Source of the DNA: an uncultured Gemmataceae bacterium
GTDB lineage: Bacteria; Planctomycetota; Planctomycetia; Gemmatales; Gemmataceae
DNA length: 64,000 bases
Assembly (NCBI GenBank): GCA_963750165.1
Contig: CAVVPN010000003.1
Span: 768,001-832,000, forward strand
Reading direction: 5' to 3'
In this document: piece by piece, positions 18,743 through 33,947 of the stretch
Position numbering within the stretch: position 1 is the stretch's first letter
How the letters are laid out: the number at the start of each line of letters is the position of its first letter
Translations under genes and position numbers: made by a program
Notes under the pieces: generated by a model
What the model saw: only the letters and a program-made list of their open reading frames with translations
Database searches by the model: none
What the model was told of the DNA's origin: nothing

Positions 18743-20592
18743 ATGACGCCATCGTTGTCGCGGCGCGACCTGTTCAAGCTCATGACCGCCGGCGGCGTCG
18801 CCGCTCTGCCAGTTCCCTTCGCCCAGGCCAACTGGCGGCAACCGCCCGGCTGGGTCGTCGGCAACATGACCGGCGCCGAGGCCCTCGTCGAGGCGCTGCT
18901 CGCGGAGGGCACCTGCTGCGTTTTTGGCATCCCCGGCGCCCAGCAGAACGAACTGTGGGACACCATCAAGAGCAAACACCTGCCGTATCTGCTCGTCACT
19001 CACGAGTTCTCCGCGGCGGGGATGGCCGACGGCTACGCCCGGGTCACCGGCCGGCCGGGCGTCCTCTGCGTCGTGCCCGGCCCCGGCCTGACCAACTCGC
19101 TGTCCGGCCTCGGCGAAGCCCTGCTCGACAGCGTACCGGTGGTGTGCGTCGTCGGCGATGTCGCGGTCGGCCCCCACGCCCATGCCTTCCAGGTCCACGC
19201 GCTGCCGCAGGCCGACCTGCTGCGACCGGTCACCAAGGAAGTGATCGTCGTGCAGCACGCCGGCCAGATCGCCGACGCGGTGCGGCAGGCGTTCCGCCTC
19301 GCCTGCTGCGGCGAACCGGGACCGGTCGGCGTCGTCGTGCCGTACAACTTCCTCATTGAGACGCAGCGCTACAACAGCGGCCCGCTCGAACCGTGCCCGC
19401 TGCCGTGGGACGAGGCCGCTTTCCAGCGAGCGCTGGCGCTGCTCGCCAACCAGCGGCTGCGCGTCGGCATCTACGCCGGCTGGGGCTGCATGAATTACGC
19501 GCCGGCGCTGGTGCATGTCGCGGAGATGCTGCAGGCGCCGGTCGCCACCAGCATGATGGGCAAGGGCGCCTTCCCGGAGAACCATCCGCTGTCGGTCGGC
19601 TGGGGTTACGGGCCGCAGGGCACGCGCGCCGCCGAGCAGGCCTTTCGCCACGTTGATGTCGTGCTGGCCCTCGGCGTCAAGTACAGCGAGGTGTCCACCG
19701 GCTTCTACTCGCAACCGCAGACGCGCCATCTTATCCAGGTGGACATCAACCCGCACAACCTCGGCCGCGTCATGCGCACTGACGTGTGCGTCAACGCTGA
19801 CGCCGGGCTGTTCCTGCAGCACCTCGAAGGCCAGGCCAGCTGTCTGCGGCGGCCGGGCGACCGCCACCTGGTCGAAGCCATCGCCCGGCACAAGGCGGAC
19901 GACCTGCGCCAGTACCAGGCGGTGTTCGCGACACCGTGCGGTGTTGATCCAATGGCGTTCATCCTGGCGCTGCGGCGGCACACGGCGCCGGACGCGCTGA
20001 CGTTTGTGGACGTGACCTGTTCGCAGTACTGGGCGACCGAGGCGTACACCACCGTGCAGCCGCGGACGTTCTTCAACCCGACCAACAACCAGGCGATGGG
20101 CTGGTCGATCCCGGCGGCGCTGGGGGCGCAGATGGCGTTCCCGAGCCGGCAGACGGTGACGATCACCGGCGATGGCTGCTTTTTGATGTCGGCGATGGAG
20201 ATTTCCACGGCGGCGCGGCGCACCTGCCGGTGAAGTTTTTTATCCTCGACGACCAGGCGTATCACTACATGCAGCTGCTGCAACGGCCGGCGTACCTGCG
20301 GACGACGGCGACGATCCTGACGCGGCTGGACTACCGGGCGCTGTCGCAGGGCTGGGGCGTGGCGTACCAGGAAATTGCCTGTGCGGCGGACCTGGAGCCG
20401 GTGATTTGTGGGGCGCTGCAGTACGCGGGGCCGGTGCTGGTGCGCGTGGTCACGGATTACCGGCGCCGGCCGATCCGCTGGATCAACGCCGCCCGCGCCC
20501 GGTACACGCAGGAGCTGACCACCGAGCAGAAGGTGCGCTTCCTGGCCCGCATCGGTTCGCGGTCGCTGGACTTCCACCCCAACAACGACTGA
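18743..20592 (+). CDS. Thiamine-diphosphate-binding protein (acetolactate synthase-like) with Tat-type signal, apparent frameshift near 20220
   Basis: FGIPG, HEFSAAGMADGYAR, PGPG, GDGCFLM; C-terminus in ORF 20230-20592. Confidence 0.82.
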
Positions 20593-23274: not shown

Positions 23275-25784
23275 ATGGCGGTCCCTCTGAAAACATCGGT
23301 GCGCTTCTTCAACCCAACCGGCCCCGACCGCTGCGCCCGGGTGACGATCCAGCCGGCGGCCGACCGCGAATTCCTCGTCATTCAGATCGAGCGCGGCACC
23401 AGGGCCACCTTGCTCAAGCACCACGAGACGCTCGGGCCGTACGCGCCGGATCAGGTGCAGGCCGCCATGAATGAGGCCGTCGCCGATTTGCGCGGGCAGG
23501 GTTTTCTGGAGGCGGGCATCGAGGCCCTGTTGCGCGGCCTGGAACACGAGGACGCCATCGTCCGCGGCCGCGCCGCCGAGAAACTCGGCTGGCGCCGCGC
23601 CCGCGACACGGTCGAAAATCTGCTGGCACTGCTGCCGCAGGCGTCGGAGGAGACGTGTCTCATCCTCGACGCCCTCGGCCGCATCGGCGACCCGGCCGCC
23701 GTCCCCAGCGTCCGTGCCTACGCCACGCGCAAACTGCTGTCGCGGCGCCGCTCCGCCGTCGAGGCGCTGCGCAACCTCAACGACGGCCCCGGCCTGGCCG
23801 AGGCGCGGACGCTGGCCCTGGAGCGGCTGCCGCAGTCCATCCGCGATCTGGTGGAAGAGCCCGGCACCACGGCGGCGCAACTGGCGCAGCAGGTCAACCT
23901 GCTCGACGCGCTGCAACTGAGCCTGGCGCTGGACACGCTGTATGAACTGGCGACGCCGGCGTGTATCGGTGCGGTGCGTGAGGTGCTGGACAAGACCACG
24001 TTCGACCGCGAACACCTGTGGCGTGCGACCAAAAGCATTTACAAGCGTGCCCTGCTCCGCCAGGATTTTGTGGCGTTCGGCTGGCTCAGCCACGCCATCG
24101 AGGCGCGCGGCCGCGTCTCCAAGGGCGCGATCGCCACGGTGAAATCCGGCCTGGACGGCGTGACACGCAAGACGCGCATCTTCGGCCGCAACACCCAGGA
24201 TTACCTGCGTCGCCTGGCCTGGCGGTATCTGCGCAACCTGGCCCGGTATCGGCCCGAGGACTACGCCGCCGCCGCCGCCGAGGCCATTATCCCATACACG
24301 CCGCAGGAGGCCGCCGGCCGCACGCGCGCCACCGGCTTCGCTGGTCTCTACCTGCTACACCGCGTTTTGCTCGACAAGAGCACGCGCTTCCACTTCGCCG
24401 GCCGCGAAATGCGCTTCCGCCTCAAGAGCGCCAAACTCAACAAGGTGACGCCCTCCACGCACGAGGAAGCGTTTGAGGAACTGTGGGAGGCACGGCCGCG
24501 GGCGTACCTGCGCGTGCTGACCGCGGCGAAGCTGGTGGACGCCCACGAGTTCGCCCTGCGCGGCCTGATGCCGAAACATCACGCCGTCGTCCGCGCTGCC
24601 GATGACGCCGAGATCATCGCCTTGCTCGACGCCCCGTATGAGCCGACGGTGCAACTCGGCGTCACCGAACTGGAGCGGCGCTTCGACCCGGAACACCCCA
24701 ACTGGGATCTGCTCCAGCGCTTGCTCGCGGACGAGCGCCCGTTGCCGCGCGAGCTGGGGCAGCGCTGGCTGGCGCAGACCGCGCCGCTGTGGCGCGCGAC
24801 CCGGAGCGCATCCTGTTGTTTTTGCGGCTGGCGCACCCCAAGGCGCGCGGCGCCGTCATCGACGCGGCCAGGGCACGGCTGGCAGCGGACAAGCCGCTGC
24901 GGCAGGTGCTGGCGAAGATGGTGCTGACGAGCCTGCAAGCTCCGGAGTCGGCGCCCGGCATTCATGACGCGCTGGCCCGCCTGGCGGTCGAGGTACTGGC
25001 GGCGGAGATGAGCACGCAGTTGAGCGTCGCCCAGTTGATCGGCTGGATCACCAGCGGCACGCCACACGTCAAGGTGCTCGCCGGCCGGCTGCTCGGCATC
25101 CACCCCGACGCGGTGCGCGAACTGGGGCTCGAACGGCTAACAGCGCTGGCGCAGCACGAGGTCGCCGCGGTGCGCGAGGCGGGTTTCGCGCTGCTGCGCT
25201 CCGCGAAGGACCAGTTGCAGCAGGATCCGTCCGTGTTGTTCGTGCTGATCGAGAGCGAGTGGGACGACGCCCGCACGCTGGCGTTCGAGTTACTGAAGTC
25301 GCTGGACCCGGTGGCGCTCGGCCTGGACGGCGTGATGGGCCTGCTTGACTCCAACCGTGTCGATGTGCAGAACACCGGCATGGAACTGGCGAAGCAAAAC
25401 TTCGACATTTACTCGCCGGAAAAGCTGGTCGAGCGTCTGGTGGAGCATCCGCACCAGAACATGCGCCGCTTCGCCCTGGAACTGGTGACCAAGCACCTGC
25501 CGCCGGGCACTGATCCGCTGGCGCGGCTGAAAGCATTTTGCCGGGCCGCCCTCTTCGACCTGTGGCCGCAGCGCAAGGTCAAGCAAGGGCTCATCGACTT
25601 CCTGACGCAGCGCGGCCTGGAGGACGCCGGGCAAGCGCAGGTGGTGGCGACGATCCTCGGCGACGTGGTGCGCGTGCAGGGGCGAGCGGATTTTGAGCAG
25701 GCGTTGACGGCACTGGTGCGGTTGAAGCTGGCGTACCCGGACCTGGAAACCACGGTGACGCTGCCGGCGGGAGGTGGGGTGTGA
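23275..25784 (+). CDS. HEAT/ARM-repeat protein with WGR-like N-terminus (retron-associated), apparent frameshift near 24792
   Basis: HEAT repeats (VRGRAAEKLG, LDALGRIGD, SEWDDAR, DSNRVDVQ); ORFs 23233-24927 and 24789-25784 join if one G is added at TGG-CG; stop overlaps the next start (GTGA). Confidence 0.78.
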
Positions 25785-27515
25785 TCGTACAGATGGAGTA
25801 CAGCGGCCGCAGCGCCATCCTCAACGGCCTGCACGACGCCCGCGTGCAGTTCGCCACCAACACGCGCCGCGATCCGACGTTCTTCCGCGGCGAACTCGCC
25901 CAGCCGGTCCTGTTCCGCGAGGCGCTGGCGGCCCTGTATCACGTCGTCGTCAGCGACTACAAGTATCGGCCGCGCGACCGCCTGGAGTTCAAGGCGTGGC
26001 TGGAGGAGCAGGACAAGATTTTCCTGGCCAACCTCGGCATGAAGAGCGCCAAGGCCAAGACCCGCCTCGCCGAGTTGCAGACGCAACTGGATCTGCTCAA
26101 TCAGGCAAAGCGCGAGCGGCTGCGGCCGTTCCACGACGCCCGCCAGGATTATTTCCAGTTCGTCTACGAGAACGAGTACGAGGAGGAGTACCTCTTCGAT
26201 CCGGTCATCACCGTGCATCCGGACGAGGTGTCGTTTGAAGCGTTCTCGCGCGATGAGAGCACTTACGGGCGGCTGGCGGCGAAATACGAGTTGTTCCGCA
26301 AGGTCGATGAGTTCCAGTGCGGCACCACCAACATCGACTTCAGCGCGAAGCTGCACGGCGAGTTGGAGCGCATCCGCTCCTATCGGCAGACGCGCTTCGA
26401 CATCGCGCCGGCCGGCTTCACCGTCGTCAGCGACGGCGGCAGCCACCGTGAGAAGAAGATCGACCTGCCGGACAGCTGGATCATGGGCTTTTTGCAGGTC
26501 CACAGCACGATGTCGATGGGCCTGACGCGCTTCCACATGGCGCCGGTGGACCTGTACAACATCTGCCGTTACCTGCGCCGCCGCAAGACGCGGAAATCGC
26601 CGCGGGCGCTGCGCTACGAGTTCACGCCGGGCCAGCCAGTGCGGGCCGTGCTGGAGCCGTGGAACCATGTGATCGAACTGACCGCCGCGTCGCCGGTCCT
26701 GGGCGGCGCCCCGCTGGCGCTGGCGGACACGGCCGGGGCCGTCTACCAGGGCCCGAAACCCGTGACCATCCGCACGTGGGGCCGCGACCGTCTGCTGACC
26801 ATCGCCCGACTGCTGCCGGCGTGCCGGCGCGTGGACGTGTACCTGGCCGGGCAGGGGCTGCCGAGCATTTACGTCCTCGACCTGGGGCCGGTGACGTTCA
26901 CGCTGGCGCTGTCTGGCTGGACCGACAACGACTGGACCGGCGGTGCCAAGTTCGACCTGCTGGCCCGCCGCCTCCTGGTCAGCGCCACGGAGTTGAGCCA
27001 GACCTACGACGCGCCTGCGCAAGGAGCGCTACGCCACCGACGGGGCGCTGGCCAACGCGACCGGCCTCGGCGTGGAGAAGTGCCGCAGTGCGCTGTCGTA
27101 CCTGTGCCAGGTGGGCCGGGCGATGTACGACCTGGGCGGCAGCGTCTACCGGCACCGCGATTTGTTCCCGGAGCCGTTCACGGTCAAGGCCGCGGTCGCC
27201 GCCGCCAAGGCCCCCGCGGCGCCGACCAACCCGCAGGAAAAAGCGGCCCTGGCGATCTTCGAGAACGACGACGTGCGGCTCACATCGCGGCGGCCGGTCG
27301 AAACCGGCTACAAGTTGACCGGCAGCGCCAAGGGCGCCGACCAGGTGCGCGTGCGGCCGCTGCTGCACGTCGATCACGAGGGCAAGGTCATTGAAGCGAC
27401 GTGTACGTGTCCGTACTTCAAGAAGCACCAGCTGACGAAGGGGCCGTGCGAGCACATTCTGGCGCTGCGGTTGGCGCACATGAGCAAACTGGAAACGGAG
27501 GACAGCGCCAGTTGA
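25781..27515 (+). CDS. SWIM zinc-finger protein (retron-associated), apparent frameshift near 27013
   Basis: DPVITVHPDEVSFEAFSRDESTYG, GTTNIDFS, SWIMGFLQV, LSGWTDNDW; C-terminal CTC-x12-CEH SWIM motif in ORF 27072-27515. Confidence 0.85.
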
Positions 27516-27766
27516 CGTTCCCGGCGGGCGGCGGTCCCGGCTGCGTTTAGCCATCAGTCTGGCGCTACGCCAGGCGGGCCGAAGTGTCTGCCATTCGTCA
27601 TGAACCCGGTCGTCACCCAGCGGCGATAATCGCTGTACCGCCGCTGCTGGGTCGAGTCCGCCGGACTCCGCGGCGGGACAGCGATTATCGCCGCCTTCAG
27701 TGGACCGGGCTCATCCGCAGGGAGTACGTAAACGCCGCGGGCCGTCGGCCGCCGGGAAACGTCAAC
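27511..27766 (+). ncRNA. Retron-like msr-msd cassette 1
   Basis: Terminal inverted repeats GTTGACGTTCCCGGCGG.../...CCGCCGGGAAACGTCAAC; putative branch G27550 in TTTAGCC; hairpin 27557-27575; msd stem 27620-27644/27670-27694. Confidence 0.8.
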
Positions 27767-27798
27767 GAAATGCTGGAGGAAAGATGCCGAATTAACAG

Positions 27799-28046
27799 TG
27801 ACGTTCTCGGGGTGGTGGCCCCGGCCGCGTTTAGCCGTGGTGCGGCGTTACGCCGCGCGGGCCGCAGCGTCTGCCATCCGTCCTGGGCCCGGTCGGCACC
27901 CAGGTGCGCACGCCCTACCGGTGCGTGCTGCTGGGTTGGGTCCGCCGGACCCCACGCACACCGGTAGGGCGTGCGCACCTTTCAGTGGACCGCGCCCATC
28001 CCGGAGTGTACGTAAGCGCCGCGGGCCACCGTCCCGAGGAACGTCA
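27799..28046 (+). ncRNA. Retron-like msr-msd cassette 2
   Basis: Terminal inverted repeats TGACGTTCTCGGG.../...CCCGAGGAACGTCA; branch G27834; hairpin 27840-27858; perfect 22-bp stem 27902-27923/27959-27980. Confidence 0.8.
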
Positions 28047-28083
28047 ACGCAGTCGCAGGAAGGAAGGTCGCATTCCCAAAACT

Positions 28084-28327
28084 CGTTCCCGGCGGGCGGC
28101 GGCCCCGGCCGCGTTTAGCCATCCGTGCGGTGTTACGCCGCGCTGGCCGAAGTGTCCGCCATTCGTCATGGGCCCGGTCGGCACATCACGGAATTCACCT
28201 AGATGAGTTCCGCTGCTGGGTCAGGCCCTCCGGTCCTCGCGGAACGCATCTAGGTGAATTCCGCTTAAGTGGACCGAGCCCATCCGAGAGTGACGTAAGC
28301 GCCGCGGGTCGCCACCCGCCGGGAACG
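28084..28327 (+). ncRNA. Retron-like msr-msd cassette 3
   Basis: Terminal inverted repeats CGTTCCCGGCGGG.../...CCCGCCGGGAACG; branch G28118; hairpin 28125-28143; stem 28189-28213/28239-28263. Confidence 0.8.
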
Positions 28328-28344
28328 TGCAACCGAGGTCAGCG

Positions 28345-28600
28345 TGAGGAGGTTTTCGGAGGGCGGCGGTCCCGGCCACGTTTAGCCATCTGTGCGGCGT
28401 TACGCCGTGCCGGCCGCAGTGTCCGCCATTCGTCCTGAGCCTGTTCGGCACCCGGCGGCCCGGGCATACTGGAGGCCAGCTGCTGGGTTGAGTCCGCCGG
28501 ACTCCGCAGGCCGCCAGTATGCCCGGGCCGCCTTCAGTGGAACAGGCACAGCCGTGATTGACGTAAACACCGTGGGCCGCCGTCCCCCGAAATGTCCTCA
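28345..28600 (+). ncRNA. Retron-like msr-msd cassette 4
   Basis: Terminal inverted repeats TGAGGAGGTTTTCGG.../...CCGAAATGTCCTCA; branch G28385; hairpin 28392-28410; stem 28454-28480/28506-28532. Confidence 0.8.
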
Positions 28601-28712
28601 ATAAATCGGCGAGCGGCGCGGCGTCAGCCCGCCGGTTCCGCAAGCGCCACCGGCGCCTTTTCTTATGAGGTGGACGAGGGCGCCGCGCCGCTCGCCTTCT
28701 GTTGGAAACGCC

Positions 28713-30065
28713 ATGTCGCCGCTCACCCTGTTCTGGTTCCTGCTCGGCGACGCCACCGCCATCGAAGCGGTCGCGGTCGATCCGTGGGCGCCGCGGGTCG
28801 GCCTGGCGCTGGCGGCGACGACGGGGCTGGCGCGGCATTACGACAGCAAGGATCTGCTGCGGCAGCCGAGGTTCCTGGCGCTGCCGGCCGTCACCGCGGT
28901 GGCGCTGGCGACGCTGCTGTTCGGCCTGCTCTGCCTGGTGTTGCTGATGAAGGGCCGGACGTTGCCGCCGGACTCCGCGGGGTATCAGTCGTTCCTGGGA
29001 ATGTTCCTCTGCACCGCGCCGCTGGCCTGGCTGTACGCCCTTCCGTACCAGCGCTTCCTGAGCCTGGGGGCGACGGTGCGGGCCAAGCTGGCGACGCTGG
29101 GACTGGTCGCCGCCTGGCGCGTGGCGATCCTGGCCCGGGCGCTGACGGTGGTGCTGCACGACCCCACGGCCGGGTCGCTGTGCTTCGTGCTGATGGTCGC
29201 CGACGCGGTCGCCCTGGTGGCGCTGGTGGTGACCAGCAACCCGAGCGATGCCCGCTCCACGCCGCGCGTGGTCAGCGTCATGGGCGGCATCGGGCCATAC
29301 GTCACCAACAAGAAACAGGATGACTTCGCCCACCGGACGGCCGTGACTGTGGGCTGTCTTGGCGTCGTGCTCCTGCCCTTGTGCGTGATGGGCGTGAGCG
29401 CCGCGCCGCTGCCCACGGCTCACTGGCGGGCCTTGCTCGCCGGCGCCGCCCCGACTGCCCCGCCGGCGCCGGCCGTCTGGTGGCTCGCCGGCCTGGCGGC
29501 GCTGGTGTTCCTGGGCCTGGGTTGCTGGACGCAACCGTCCCAGTGGCGGCGCGGCCGTTTCGAGGCGTGGCTGCGGTCGGGAAGGATCACGGAGGCATTG
29601 ACGGACCTGTCGGTGCGCGGCCTGACGGCCTTCCCGCCGCACTGGCAGCCGCCGCCGACCGCCGACTTCCGCGAACCGCCCGGACTGCCCGCGGTGGTCC
29701 GGGCGGCGCTGGAGCCGGCGGTCGCACCGTGGGTGCGCGCCATTTACCTGGAACGGTTCGAGCGTTACCTGAGCCAGCCGCTGTGGTTCTGGCCCTATGA
29801 CGACGAACTCGGCCAGGTGATCGCCGTGCTGCGGCAACTGCCCGATGGCCAGGCCCTCGCCGCTCGGGTGCTGGACGCAGGCGCACAGGTGGAAGATTTT
29901 CTGAAGAAAAACGAAGAGATGGTGCGGAAACTGGAAGGACAGGGCGACCGCCCCGGGATTTCTCTCGTCCAACCGGAGCCGAAAATCACCGAGCAGCGCC
30001 CGGCCCTCCTCGCCGCGCTGGCCGACCTGGCCGGGCGCGGCGATCACCAGCGAGAAACCGCATGA
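28713..30065 (+). CDS. Multi-pass membrane protein of unknown function, translationally coupled to the RT
   Basis: About 7-8 hydrophobic segments and a soluble C-terminus; stop overlaps the RT start (ATGA 30062-30065). Confidence 0.75.
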   Translation: MSPLTLFWFLLGDATAIEAVAVDPWAPRVGLALAATTGLARHYDSKDLLRQPRFLALPAVTAVALATLLFGLLCLVLLMKGRTLPPDSAGYQSFLGMFLCTAPLAWLYALPYQRFLSLGATVRAKLATLGLVAAWRVAILARALTVVLHDPTAGSLCFVLMVADAVALVALVVTSNPSDARSTPRVVSVMGGIGPYVTNKKQDDFAHRTAVTVGCLGVVLLPLCVMGVSAAPLPTAHWRALLAGAAPTAPPAPAVWWLAGLAALVFLGLGCWTQPSQWRRGRFEAWLRSGRITEALTDLSVRGLTAFPPHWQPPPTADFREPPGLPAVVRAALEPAVAPWVRAIYLERFERYLSQPLWFWPYDDELGQVIAVLRQLPDGQALAARVLDAGAQVEDFLKKNEEMVRKLEGQGDRPGISLVQPEPKITEQRPALLAALADLAGRGDHQRETA

Positions 30066-31450
30066 GCACCGAGAACGAGAAGGCCAAACTGTACCGCGAG
30101 ATCGTCCAGCAGACCAACGACAAGGTGCTGCTGGAGCGCATGCGGCTGCACGGCTTCTGGGGCCGCGAGCCGCTGCCGCAGGACCCCGCCGAGGAGGGGG
30201 CGCAGCGTGCCGCCATCGAAAAGGAAATGGCCGATCTGCGCAAGGCGAATTCCCTGGTGAAGAACCCGCAGAAGGCGCTGGCAGCGGAGCGCAAGCGGCG
30301 CTGGGAGGAGAGCAAGAAGCGCCGCGCCGAGAACAAGAAGTTGCGCGCCGCCGAGCAAAAGCAGCGGGCCGAGAAGTATGCGGCGTATCGCACCACCACC
30401 ATCGTCCACGCCGGCGCCGGCGTCAGCGGCGGCCTGCAGAACACTGACACGAACGAGCCGCTGCTGACCGAGCGCGGCCTGCCAGTGGTGCGCGACGGGG
30501 CGGAACTGGCCGCCGCGCTGGGCATCAAGCTGAGCGCCCTGCGCTGGCTGACGTACCACCGCCGCGGCGCCACGGTGGTGCACTACCACCGCTTCGAGAT
30601 CGCGAAGAAGACCGGCGGCGTCCGCTGCATCTCGGCGCCCAAGCCGGCGCTGGCCCACGCCCAGCGCTGGGTCCTCGACAACATCCTGGCGAAGCTCGAA
30701 GTGGAACCGCAAGCGCACGGCTTCGTACCGGGCCGCTCCATCGTCAGCAACGCGACGCCGCACGTCGGCCGGCAAATCGTCCTCAACCTCGACCTGCGCG
30801 ACTTCTTCCCGTCGATCACGTTCCGCCGCGTCAAGGGGCTGTTCCATTCCTTCGGCTACAGCGAACACGTAGGGACCGTGCTGGCGCTGCTGACGACGGA
30901 GCCGCCGCGCGTGCCGGCCGCCGTGGACGGCAAACTCTACTACGTGGCGCTGGGCGAGCGCATCTTACCGCAGGGGGCGTGTACGAGCCCGGCACTGACG
31001 AACGCGCTGTGCTGGCGGCTGGATCGGCGGTTGACCGGCCTGGCGAAACGGCACGAGTTCCAGTACACGCGCTACGCCGACGACCTGACGTTTTCGGGCG
31101 ACAACGCCGCGGCGGTCGGCAAACTGCTGCGGAGCGTGCGGGCGATTTTGCTGACGGAGGGCTTCACGGAGCAGCCGACCAAGACGCGGGTGATGCGGCG
31201 CTCGAACCGGCAGGAGGTGACGGGCGTGACGGTGAACACGCGGCCGAAGGTGTGCCGCGAGGACCTGCGGACGCTGCGGGCCATCCTGCACAACGCGGCG
31301 AAACACGGGCTGGAGAGTCAGAACCGCGACCAGCGGCCGGACTTCGCGGCGTACCTGCGCGGCAAGGTGGCGTACGCGTGCATGGTCGATCCGGAGCGGG
31401 CGGCGGACTGGCGCGGGCGGCTGGCGAAGGCGCTGGGCCAGTCGTCGTAG
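30062..31450 (+). CDS. Retron-type reverse transcriptase (Mx162/type XIII-like, long N-terminal extension)
   Basis: AHGFVPGRSIVSNATPH (region X NAxxH), LDLRDFFPSI, LPQGACTSP, YTRYADDLTFS, QEVTGVTVN (region Y VTG); intact frame. Confidence 0.93.
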   Translation: MSTENEKAKLYREIVQQTNDKVLLERMRLHGFWGREPLPQDPAEEGAQRAAIEKEMADLRKANSLVKNPQKALAAERKRRWEESKKRRAENKKLRAAEQKQRAEKYAAYRTTTIVHAGAGVSGGLQNTDTNEPLLTERGLPVVRDGAELAAALGIKLSALRWLTYHRRGATVVHYHRFEIAKKTGGVRCISAPKPALAHAQRWVLDNILAKLEVEPQAHGFVPGRSIVSNATPHVGRQIVLNLDLRDFFPSITFRRVKGLFHSFGYSEHVGTVLALLTTEPPRVPAAVDGKLYYVALGERILPQGACTSPALTNALCWRLDRRLTGLAKRHEFQYTRYADDLTFSGDNAAAVGKLLRSVRAILLTEGFTEQPTKTRVMRRSNRQEVTGVTVNTRPKVCREDLRTLRAILHNAAKHGLESQNRDQRPDFAAYLRGKVAYACMVDPERAADWRGRLAKALGQSS

Positions 31451-31461
31451 GAGCCGCCGGA

Positions 31462-31511
31462 CCACCAGCGACCCGTTGACGTTTCGCGAAACGTCAACGG
31501 GTCGCTGGTGG
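31462..31511. repeat. Perfect 50-bp palindrome after the RT stop (terminator/REP-like)
   Basis: CCACCAGCGACCCGTTGACGTTTCGCGAAACGTCAACGGGTCGCTGGTGG equals its own reverse complement; lies between convergent genes. Confidence 0.85.
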
Positions 31512-32005: not shown

Positions 32006-33346
32006 TCAATCACGTGCCGCCTTCCCTTCCGCCAGCAACCGCTGCACCAGTTCCAGCGCCTGCTTCGGCGTCGTGATCGTGCCCTCCAGCTGCGCCTCGC
32101 GCGCCGCGTCCAGCAGCCGCTTGAACACCGGCCCCGGCACCAACCCCAGCCGCGTCAACTCATGCCCGGTAATCAGCGGCGGCGGGTTCAGGTCCGCGGC
32201 CGTCCACTCGCGCAGCAAATACTCGCAATATTCCACGTGCTCCACACTGCGGCCGCTGGCCAGCGCGTCGGCGCGGTGCAGCGCCAGCAACTCGCCGATG
32301 CCGGGGTGGATCAGCGTCATCTTGAGCTTGCTCGTGCGCATCTGGCGAACGTCGCACAAAAATTGATGCTTCTCCACCAGCCAGGTCACGCGCTCGCGCT
32401 CCGCGTTCGACAGCCGCAGCCGCTCCGCGATCTCGCCCGCCAGCCGGGCGCCGACGTGCTCGTGGTAGTAGAAGGTGTAGCGCTCCGGCGTGCGGCCGAC
32501 GGTGCGCGGCTTGCCCACATCGTGCAGCAGCGCCGCCAGCGCCAGCGGAAACGACGGCTCCGGCCCCAGCAACTCCATCACACGCATCACGTGATCCCAC
32601 AGGTCGCCCGTCGGCGCCGCCGGCGGCCCCTGTGGCAGGCCGCGCATCGGCAGCAGTTCCGGCAGCACCGGCGCCACCAGCCCCAGTTCGAGCAGCAGGT
32701 TCAGGCCACGCACTCGCCGCGGATGGACCAGCAGTTGCCGCAGCTCTTCCGCGATACGCTCGGCACTGACGACGGTGATCTGCGCCGCCATCTCGCGCAC
32801 CGCCGCCTCGGTCGGCGGGTCGATGGCCAGGTCGAAGCGCGTCGCCATGCGCACCGCGCAGCAGCCGCAGCTTGTCCTCGCCAAAGCGCACCCGCGGCTC
32901 ACCGATGGCGCGCAGCAGCGAGCGCTCCAGGTCCGCCCGGCCGCCCACGTAGTCCACGAGTTCCCGTGTCAGCGGGTCGAAGAACATGCCGTTGATGGTG
33001 AAGTCGCGCCGCTCCGCGTCCTCGGCGCCGACGAGAAACGCACCGCGTCGGGGTGCCGGCCGTCACTGTAGCCAACATCGGTGCGGAAGGTCGCCACCTG
33101 CACCATGAGTGGCTTGCCCTGGCCGCGCGGCCCCAGCACCTCGACGACGCCAAAGCTCGCTCCCACCGCGACCGTGCGGCGGAACAGCTGGCGCACCTGG
33201 TGCGGCGTGGCCGACGTGGCGATGTCGTAGTCCTTCGGCGGCAGGCCGAGCAGTTCGTCGCGCACGCAGCCGCCGGCCCAGAGCGCCTGATGGCCGGCCT
33301 CCTGGAGCTGGCGCACGACCTGGGTGGCGAAGTCACGTTGCGTCAT
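32006..33346 (-). CDS. cca: CCA tRNA nucleotidyltransferase with HD domain, two apparent frameshifts (about 33025 and 32860)
   Basis: AGGCVRD..LG..PKDYDIATSA, RDFTIN region, FGEDKLRLLR, SAERI, ALLHDVGK. Confidence 0.85.
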
Positions 33347-33947
33347 GGTCGGCGGCCCCGTTGGCCAGCGGGTCAGGCGGCAGCTCCTTGACCCAGAGCA
33401 GCAGTTCGTTGCGGCCGTAGCGGCGCCGGTCCCACGCCTCCGGCTCCGGCAGGTGGTCGCCAAACACGCCCTTTTCCGATTGCAGCACCAGCACCGACTC
33501 GCCCGGCAGCCGCTCCTGGAACCCGCGGATCACCGCGGCCATGTCGTCGGCGCGGTTCACCAGATCGGCGAACGGCGGGCTGAGGTAGACGTTGACGGGC
33601 TCGTCCGGCGGCAGCCAGTGGGCGGCCCAGCGATACACGTCGCCGCGGATGACCTGGCCGCGCTCGGCGACGCGGAAGTCCGTCAGGTTGCGTTCGATGT
33701 CCTGGGCCAGCCGGAAGTCGCGCTCGAGGAACTGACAGAAGCTGGCGCCGCGGCTGATCGCCTCCAGGCCGATGACGCCACTGCCGGCGAAGGCGTCGAA
33801 GAAGGGCCGCTCCGGCACCGCGTTGCCGAGGATGCTGAACAGGGCCTCGCGCACCTTGTCCGGCGTCGGCCGCAGCCCCGGATGCACCTGACACGTCAGC
33901 TTGCGACCGCGCAAGGAACCGGACACGATTCGGAGTTGTACGCGCAT
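33333..33947 (-). CDS. rsmD: RsmD-family 16S rRNA methyltransferase
   Basis: LRIVSGSLRGRKL, LRPTPDKVREALFSIL, DAFAGSG..GLEAISRGA, SPPF. Confidence 0.85.
   Translation of the reverse strand: MRVQLRIVSGSLRGRKLTCQVHPGLRPTPDKVREALFSILGNAVPERPFFDAFAGSGVIGLEAISRGASFCQFLERDFRLAQDIERNLTDFRVAERGQVIRGDVYRWAAHWLPPDEPVNVYLSPPFADLVNRADDMAAVIRGFQERLPGESVLVLQSEKGVFGDHLPEPEAWDRRRYGRNELLLWVKELPPDPLANGAADHDAT

Follow-up and report, generated by a model that had tools for sequence, protein, structure and literature searches.

A type XIII retron candidate with a natural array of four msr-msd units in a Gemmataceae genome

The DNA analysed here is a stretch of 64,000 nucleotides (hereafter the window; positions 768,001 to 832,000 of contig CAVVPN010000003.1) from an uncultured planctomycete of the family Gemmataceae. 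It carries an operon that, judged from its sequence, is a type XIII retron of the Mx162 family, the family that gave the first retron product discovered, the Mx162-type multicopy single-stranded DNA (msDNA). The operon contains a tandem array of four msr-msd units (table 1), and its single reverse transcriptase (RT) likely copies these four templates into four different hairpin DNAs. The units share a conserved scaffold and differ above all in an 18-bp stem, which likely sets specificity and diversifies after duplication. G000 denotes the source genome of the window, other G- and L-numbers are our working labels of other genomes and loci, and what we attribute to publications refers to the parts of their texts that were available.

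Table 1. Features of the retron locus; positions are those of the window.
Feature	Position	Strand	Details
WGR-like N-terminus and HEAT/ARM solenoid (type XIII accessory)	23275..25784	+	PADLOC; frameshift near 24789
SWIM protein: predicted PCNA-like clamp, coiled-coil insert, winged helix, C-terminal SWIM zinc finger	25781..27515	+	PADLOC, Pfam, orthologue model
msr-msd unit 1	27511..27766	+	branch G 27550, msd 27586-27728 (both predicted); variable core 27624-27640
msr-msd unit 2	27799..28046	+	branch G 27834, msd 27869-28012 (both predicted); variable core 27906-27923
msr-msd unit 3	28084..28327	+	branch G 28118, msd 28154-28295 (both predicted); variable core 28192-28209
msr-msd unit 4	28349..28597	+	branch G 28385, msd 28421-28563 (both predicted); variable core 28459-28476
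41-nt piece of unit 4, predicted msDNA 3' end	28421..28461	+	recurs in G000
Membrane protein, 450 aa, ~6 hydrophobic segments, Planctomycetota hypothetical family	28713..30065	+	passenger (from locus comparison)
Retron reverse transcriptase, type XIII, intact, 462 aa	30062..31450	+	PADLOC and motifs
Perfect 25-bp palindrome 3' of the RT gene, resembling repetitive extragenic palindromes (REP-like)	31462..31511		strand not assigned; two related hairpins elsewhere in the genome; not a non-coding RNA unit

The class assignment rests on PADLOC profiles and motifs, the RT tree built here having contained no named reference retrons. PADLOC, named in the preliminary description of the locus as a suitable check, returned type XIII models as the best matches for all three proteins, and the proposed kinship with the Mx162 family thus stands. 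For the RT, RT_XIII ranked first among 61 models (E 2.2e-166; runner-up 5e-113); the two halves of the frameshifted HEAT gene matched WGR_XIII (E 6e-57 and 6e-44), with HEAT-ARM_XIII also matched, and the parts of the SWIM gene matched SWIM_XIII (E 2.6e-145 and 1.5e-32). The translated SWIM protein contains the motif Dx7Dx4Ex30-32D, as expected for the type XIII partner of cluster 114. The components found here agree with the list given for type XIII by Mestre et al. 2020 (PMC7736814), and Planctomycetota account for 26 of 143 type XIII candidates in PMC13712802, in keeping with the planctomycete setting proposed for this retron. Comparison of loci further confirmed that HEAT and SWIM genes accompany this RT in many genomes. 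The Pfam families matched at the locus are HEAT_2, SWIM and RVT_1.

The architecture described earlier was reproduced in detail. All five parts (HEAT, SWIM, non-coding RNA (ncRNA) array, membrane protein and RT) lie on the forward strand at the positions originally assigned to them; HEAT ends and SWIM begins within GTGA (25781-25784), unit 1, whose arms span 27511-27539 and 27738-27766, has the SWIM stop (27513-27515) in its first arm, and the stop of the membrane gene overlaps the RT start (ATGA, 30062-30065). The RT displays the motifs NATPH at 230, YADD at 338 and VTG at 386, together with the charged N-terminal extension noted before (35% charged residues among residues 1-150 vs 24% in the remainder). 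A promoter and terminator scan gave no signal exceeding chance.

The expanded ncRNA repertoire is genuine: four units are present, and arrays recur in other loci. The units are each ~250 nt long, are spaced by 283, 285 and 267 nt, and all fold as a retron ncRNA in which the a1/a2 arms, a TTTAGC containing the branch G, the msr hairpin and the long hairpin of the msd can be recognised. This judgement was made from folds and covariation worked out here, with compensatory changes at 27 of the 41 consensus pairs across 19 units; no Rfam family attains its gathering score at the locus. In the msd, a conserved base and a conserved loop flank a stem of ~25 bp with an 18-bp variable core, and the predicted msDNA is ~143 nt long (142-144 nt). 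Whereas the scaffold is 82% identical among the window units, the 18-bp stems are 49% identical vs 41% for shuffled sequences. Nevertheless, in units 1 to 4, respectively, 17/18, 18/19, 18/19 and 18/19 bases of the stem pair with their own partner arm, and the mean core pairing reaches 0.94 with the own arm (14 array units) against 0.27 with the arms of other units of the same array (46 pairs); the self-pairing of the stems is thus far beyond chance.

The contrast between scaffold and stem extends to other arrays. Among 23 within-array pairs, identity amounts to 0.82-0.85 in the scaffold and 0.72-0.73 in the a1/a2 arms, which are constrained by pairing only, and to 0.45 in the variable core (0.41 when shuffled), while single-unit loci with an msr identity of at least 0.85 show a core identity of 0.69 (24 pairs), neither set of pairs being independent. 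One case is a 375-bp duplicate in Hazenella coriacea, which includes a promoter-like stretch: its two copies differ at 18 of 40 positions of the stem arms, nine per arm and all compensated, vs 5 of 279 positions elsewhere (Fisher p 6e-9). Differences among the units of locus L042 likewise concentrate in the stem. By contrast, six single-copy orthologues from Myxococcales show no difference in the 18-bp stem in any of their 15 pairs, the flanking coding DNA being 80-97% identical. The stem is thus not simply hypermutable, since it stays constant in single copies and is rewritten once duplicated, and this behaviour is the reason why we infer that it carries specificity. Template switching is a candidate for the joint change of both stem arms.

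Beyond the window we found arrays in five loci: six full units and one partial unit in L209 (genome G025), two units in L003, from a genome of the same family as the source, two in L211 (G114), two in L017 of H. coriacea, and three, 3' of the RT gene, in L042 of a metagenome-assembled genome (MAG) of Helarchaeota, a lineage of Asgard archaea. The idea of a planctomycete variant with expanded ncRNA is thus borne out as regards the expansion and fails as regards its restriction to planctomycetes, arrays being present also in Hazenella and the Helarchaeota MAG. In the latter, the SWIM and RT genes are followed by the three-unit array (L042:11390-12095), possibly as a result of bin contamination. 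Single units are the rule (33 of the 47 distinct units compared); they were seen in 10 of 11 genomes of the Thermoactinomycetaceae type, two of which have a degenerate extra unit, and in 27 of 27 Myxococcales loci (viewed within 1.5 kb). On a quick tree of 56 RTs, in which L042 forms a long branch with an odd composition, array presence changes at least four times on well-supported branches. REP-like palindromes lie between array units in the L209 spacers and at L003:7070-7140, and could promote unit duplication.

The preliminary description called the operon complete, a term to be qualified since both HEAT and SWIM are frameshifted in the assembly, the former by one missing base near 24789 and the latter by one extra base near 27014. 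Orthologues have a single open reading frame in 8 of 8 checked. We regard the two frameshifts as probably errors of assembly. A local error is suggested because the single-copy gene of the CCA-adding enzyme (window 32006-33402), 1.4 kb downstream, has two frameshifts and the upstream gene of a thiamine pyrophosphate (TPP) enzyme (window 18743-20592) has one; a codon-model scan of 12 other stretches flagged 2-12 possible shifts in each 64 kb, all unvalidated calls. On the other hand, none of 40 other homology-tested genes is split while both partners are, which counts against an assembly error. This contrast would fit the view that the window copy is already a pseudogene in a decaying locus, with the extra units redundant and the stems drifting under pairing alone; degenerate extra units do exist in some relatives, and inverted repeats can be made perfect by template switching, with no selection involved. 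We nevertheless hold such neutral duplication to be quite unlikely: scaffold and pairing are kept in all four units, the pairing-only a1/a2 arms diverge far less than the stems, the stems are constant in single copies, the partner genes are intact in other array loci (L003, L211 and L017), and the breaks in the CCA-adding and TPP enzymes point to a local assembly error.

Traces of reverse transcription can be sought in the chromosome itself. The 41-nt piece of unit 4 recurs at C11:1126036-1126076 and C12:304059-304099 of G000 (40/41 identical, E 1e-11), both copies sitting in a common 302-bp segment (88% identical) that has an endonuclease VII/HNH-like gene on one side and an HNH gene on the other. 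The copy on C12 is a remnant, and the two may stem from one event. No empty site for this HNH-flanked fragment was matched in 251 genomes of the family. At L083:4754-5900, phage-type endonuclease VII/HNH and HNH genes, next to what looks by eye like a tRNA gene, enclose the msd fragment, which may have been captured or may serve as a decoy. When 12 genomes were each searched with their own or a near-identical ncRNA, fragments of 22-68 nt turned up in six (G000, G652, G670, G802, G663 and G665), with three strong and three weak ones in G670. No orphan fragments were found in G114, G664, G684 and G733, nor among the best 60 matches in G025 with its first five units as queries; G655 gave a single weak, ambiguous match, and the apparent myxobacterial orphans L332 and L333 were rejected as chance matches. 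All strong fragments lie within the msd and none includes the msr hairpin, while one weak match in G802, which may be due to chance, extends to a2. Two G670 fragments and the G000 piece, three independent cases, begin at one common column that coincides with the predicted RT stop. Genuine products of an RT should show this pattern, which indirectly suggests that reverse transcription of unit 4, or of a near ancestor, has taken place. Searches of viral contigs gave no exact match for the unit-4 piece or for an msr pattern.

Structure prediction offers some insight into the partner proteins. Over residues 35-382, the AlphaFold2 model of the intact SWIM orthologue from L003 (~75% identical; pLDDT 81.8) matches the clamps PCNA and 9-1-1 (237 aligned residues, rmsd 3.3, Z 20.5; Foldseek E 3.6e-10), displaying the two-domain fold that defines them; over residues 403-467 it matches winged helices. 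The protein has invariant acidic residues, and its DEDE motif, which Mestre et al. (PMC7736814) linked to transposases, falls inside the predicted clamp. We thus predict for the SWIM partner a clamp fold like that of PCNA, not a transposase fold; no report of such a fold in this protein was found in the literature. The model of a HEAT orthologue (pLDDT 90) comprises a solenoid and a small N-terminal beta domain, with generic HEAT matches only (TM ~0.2) and no recognisable catalytic domain.

Our literature search found no function assigned to the type XIII family and no paper with anti-phage activity for it; in other retrons, msDNA senses phage methylases, nucleases and single-stranded DNA-binding protein (PMC12640716). 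By analogy with Sen2, Eco1 and Eco7, the msDNA stems may be baits for phage proteins held by a complex of RT, SWIM and HEAT, which is the reading we favour although it falls somewhat short of being probable. From the four template RNAs the single RT would make as many hairpin DNAs (~143 nt), and the 18-bp stem peculiar to each would, by its sequence, act as bait for proteins with which invading phages bind or modify DNA. The clamp-fold SWIM protein and the HEAT partner, a predicted scaffold with a WGR-like start, would hold the RT-msDNA complex, some output would be released once a stem is bound, cut or methylated, and extra units would widen the set of triggers. In a broader and rather unlikely version, type XIII retrons would be expandable multi-specificity DNA sensors or guides, in which one RT and a clamp-fold complex are loaded with msDNAs whose stem arms are both rewritten once a unit has been duplicated, the complex acting on DNA and leaving chromosomal msd fragments. 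If true, planctomycetes, Bacillota and an Asgard archaeon would have a programmable retron repertoire of natural origin.

Several points weigh against the bait reading. Neither Pfam nor structure comparison found a toxic domain in HEAT or SWIM; the window neighbours are housekeeping genes (lpxA-like, TPP enzyme, CCA-adding enzyme and RsmD-like) and form no defence island; Millman et al. describe two RT clades, not named there, that are seldom near defence genes; and PMC7736814 reports signs of vertical inheritance for type XIII and considers some retrons perhaps domesticated. Restriction-like palindromes are not clearly enriched in the stems (8 vs 4.5 6-mers, p 0.07), and dyad symmetry shows a signal in array stems (p 0.02, uncorrected) and none in single units. 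To these may be added the frameshifts in both protein partners, set against 0 of 40 other test genes, the non-independence of the identity pairs and gene conversion of the scaffold, which could exaggerate the contrast between scaffold and stem.

Some of these facts would suit a domesticated system acting on DNA damage or DNA ends, in which the WGR-like and clamp-fold SWIM proteins engage breaks, msDNA serves as a patch or regulator, and the stems tune the binding of host proteins. WGR domains, a kind of domain known for binding DNA breaks, recur at type XIII loci, and the predicted SWIM fold is common to PCNA and 9-1-1; the housekeeping neighbourhood, the unlinked state of RT, ncRNA and HEAT-SWIM in some genomes, the presence of msd fragments elsewhere in the chromosome in 6 of 12 genomes and the vertical inheritance reported in PMC7736814 point the same way. 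However, the distribution is patchy (ncRNA matches in 21 of 251 genomes of the family, some by chance, and in 3 of 400 other genomes of the phylum, searched with one pattern), repeated stem diversification in duplicates suits an arms race more than a fixed host partner, and the orphan fragments may be by-products of abundant single-stranded DNA. On balance we think this role unlikely.

The stems might instead be guides, an msDNA arm pairing with a target nucleic acid to direct SWIM/HEAT, so that the array would be a small programmable repertoire. Their constant length of ~18-20 nt in a fixed scaffold, their unit-specific sequence and the invariant acidic SWIM residues, which could be catalytic, would fit. 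However, none of the four cores matches its own genome beyond chance at 0-2 mismatches, and the two cores searched against viral contigs have no exact match there, a weak point since phages of the host are probably scarce in that collection. A surplus of matches of core 3 at 3-4 mismatches in its own genome was set aside, the sites being scattered and without common context. These searches bear equally on a CRISPR-like spacer array, in which the variable segments would match self or foreign targets. Furthermore, both arms stay paired, which would hide any guide, the Hazenella stems are 55% alike and so resemble mutation rather than capture, and the single-copy stem is constant across species. 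We therefore consider guiding very improbable.

The membrane protein had been taken for an extra component of the system, and here the comparison of loci led us to a different view. Its gene has no tblastn match in any of 80 loci of RT relatives; homologues occur in 22 of 251 genomes of the family, yet 0 of 16 homologue loci (10 viewed with flanks of ~6 kb, six with 1.5 kb) lie near an RT, SWIM, HEAT or ncRNA, and no PADLOC model matches the protein. In relatives, the slot before the RT is occupied by other genes, such as a HicB-like gene (L003) or HEAT-type open reading frames (L200), and a WGR-beta-propeller gene takes this place in L004 and breaks up the array in L209. By these gene-content comparisons, the membrane gene is a passenger rather than a conserved component. 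Its family forms tandem paralogue clusters, with four copies in L231 (G183:C18:67701-72659) and two or three in L232. The WGR-beta-propeller family adjoins type XIII RTs in three loci (L209:1626-3104, L004:212-1639 and L013:11416-11932) and has no match in G000.

G000 has a second type XIII-like locus (L081, C11:2295758-2298892), with a SWIM protein, seemingly ending in a WGR-like C-terminal domain, followed by an RT (45% identical); HEAT and ncRNA of the window family were not detected there. Most of the loci L023-L080 represent a second large SWIM and RT clade without a match to the HEAT protein or ncRNA model of the window. Type XIII parts are scattered in some genomes (G017 L219:7567-7774 and L220:7630-7850, L149, L134), the arrangements including a lone full ncRNA unit, HEAT-SWIM-ncRNA without an RT nearby, and stand-alone RTs.

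This type of system is already known; what we did not find in print is the set made up of naturally occurring arrays whose stems have diversified, the clamp fold and recurring fragments of msd, supplements and most subscription papers having been outside the scope of the search. The arrays point to the 18-20-bp stem as the likely specificity variable, which would make the function of type XIII testable, and the cultured H. coriacea DSM 45707, with two units differing almost solely in the stem, is a ready-made experiment. The predicted clamp fold recasts the SWIM partner as a DNA-clamp-like protein rather than a transposase relic. Also of relevance to multiplexed retron editing would be a retron that naturally has several templates, accepts any stem so long as it is paired, and makes DNA that apparently enters chromosomes.

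Type XIII as defined in PMC7736814 (clade 10; Mxa1/Mx162, Mxa2/Mx65, Nex2/Ne144 and Sau1/Sa163) shares with the window the N-terminal RT extension, the cluster-114 SWIM protein with DEDE motif and winged helix, the cluster-216 WGR-HEAT protein and the position of the msr-msd between SWIM and RT. It differs in that known members have one template and the window four, and in that the DEDE region was regarded as transposase-like there and is predicted to be clamp-like here; the main text of that paper makes no mention of tandem, duplicated, arrayed or multi-copy ncRNA, although its supplementary tables could list such loci. The nearest published parallel is the ncRNA arrays of UG27 RTs (bioRxiv 10.64898/2026.09.22.753630), which are likewise variable, with conserved structure and diverse sequence, central hairpins copied into short cDNAs and two accessory proteins. 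However, the UG27 RT belongs to the class 2 unknown groups, is accompanied by bORF and sORF, resides in prophages and has units of ~150 nt, whereas the retron of the window is a true one, sits in the chromosome, and has a1/a2 arms, TAGC as its branch site and other partners. We thus rejected UG27 as the identity of the system, its RT and partners scoring as type XIII and the locus lying among housekeeping genes. Retron-Nex1 (Ne160) of Nannocystis (Lampson 1997, 2002, via PMC6868368) resembles our case in its duplicated msr/msd and partial chromosomal msDNA copies, but its repeats have no RT within a kilobase, whereas the window has full units inside an operon, differing in a defined stem. Retrons Sen2, Eco1 and Eco7 (PMC12640716), where phage enzymes change an effector-bound msDNA stem-loop, are the model for the bait reading; they have a single template and identified toxic effectors, whereas the window has four templates and no effector domain was found in it. 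Finally, engineered retron arrays (bioRxiv 10.1101/2023.07.17.549397) also serve one RT with several templates, but are synthetic, unlike the array in the window.

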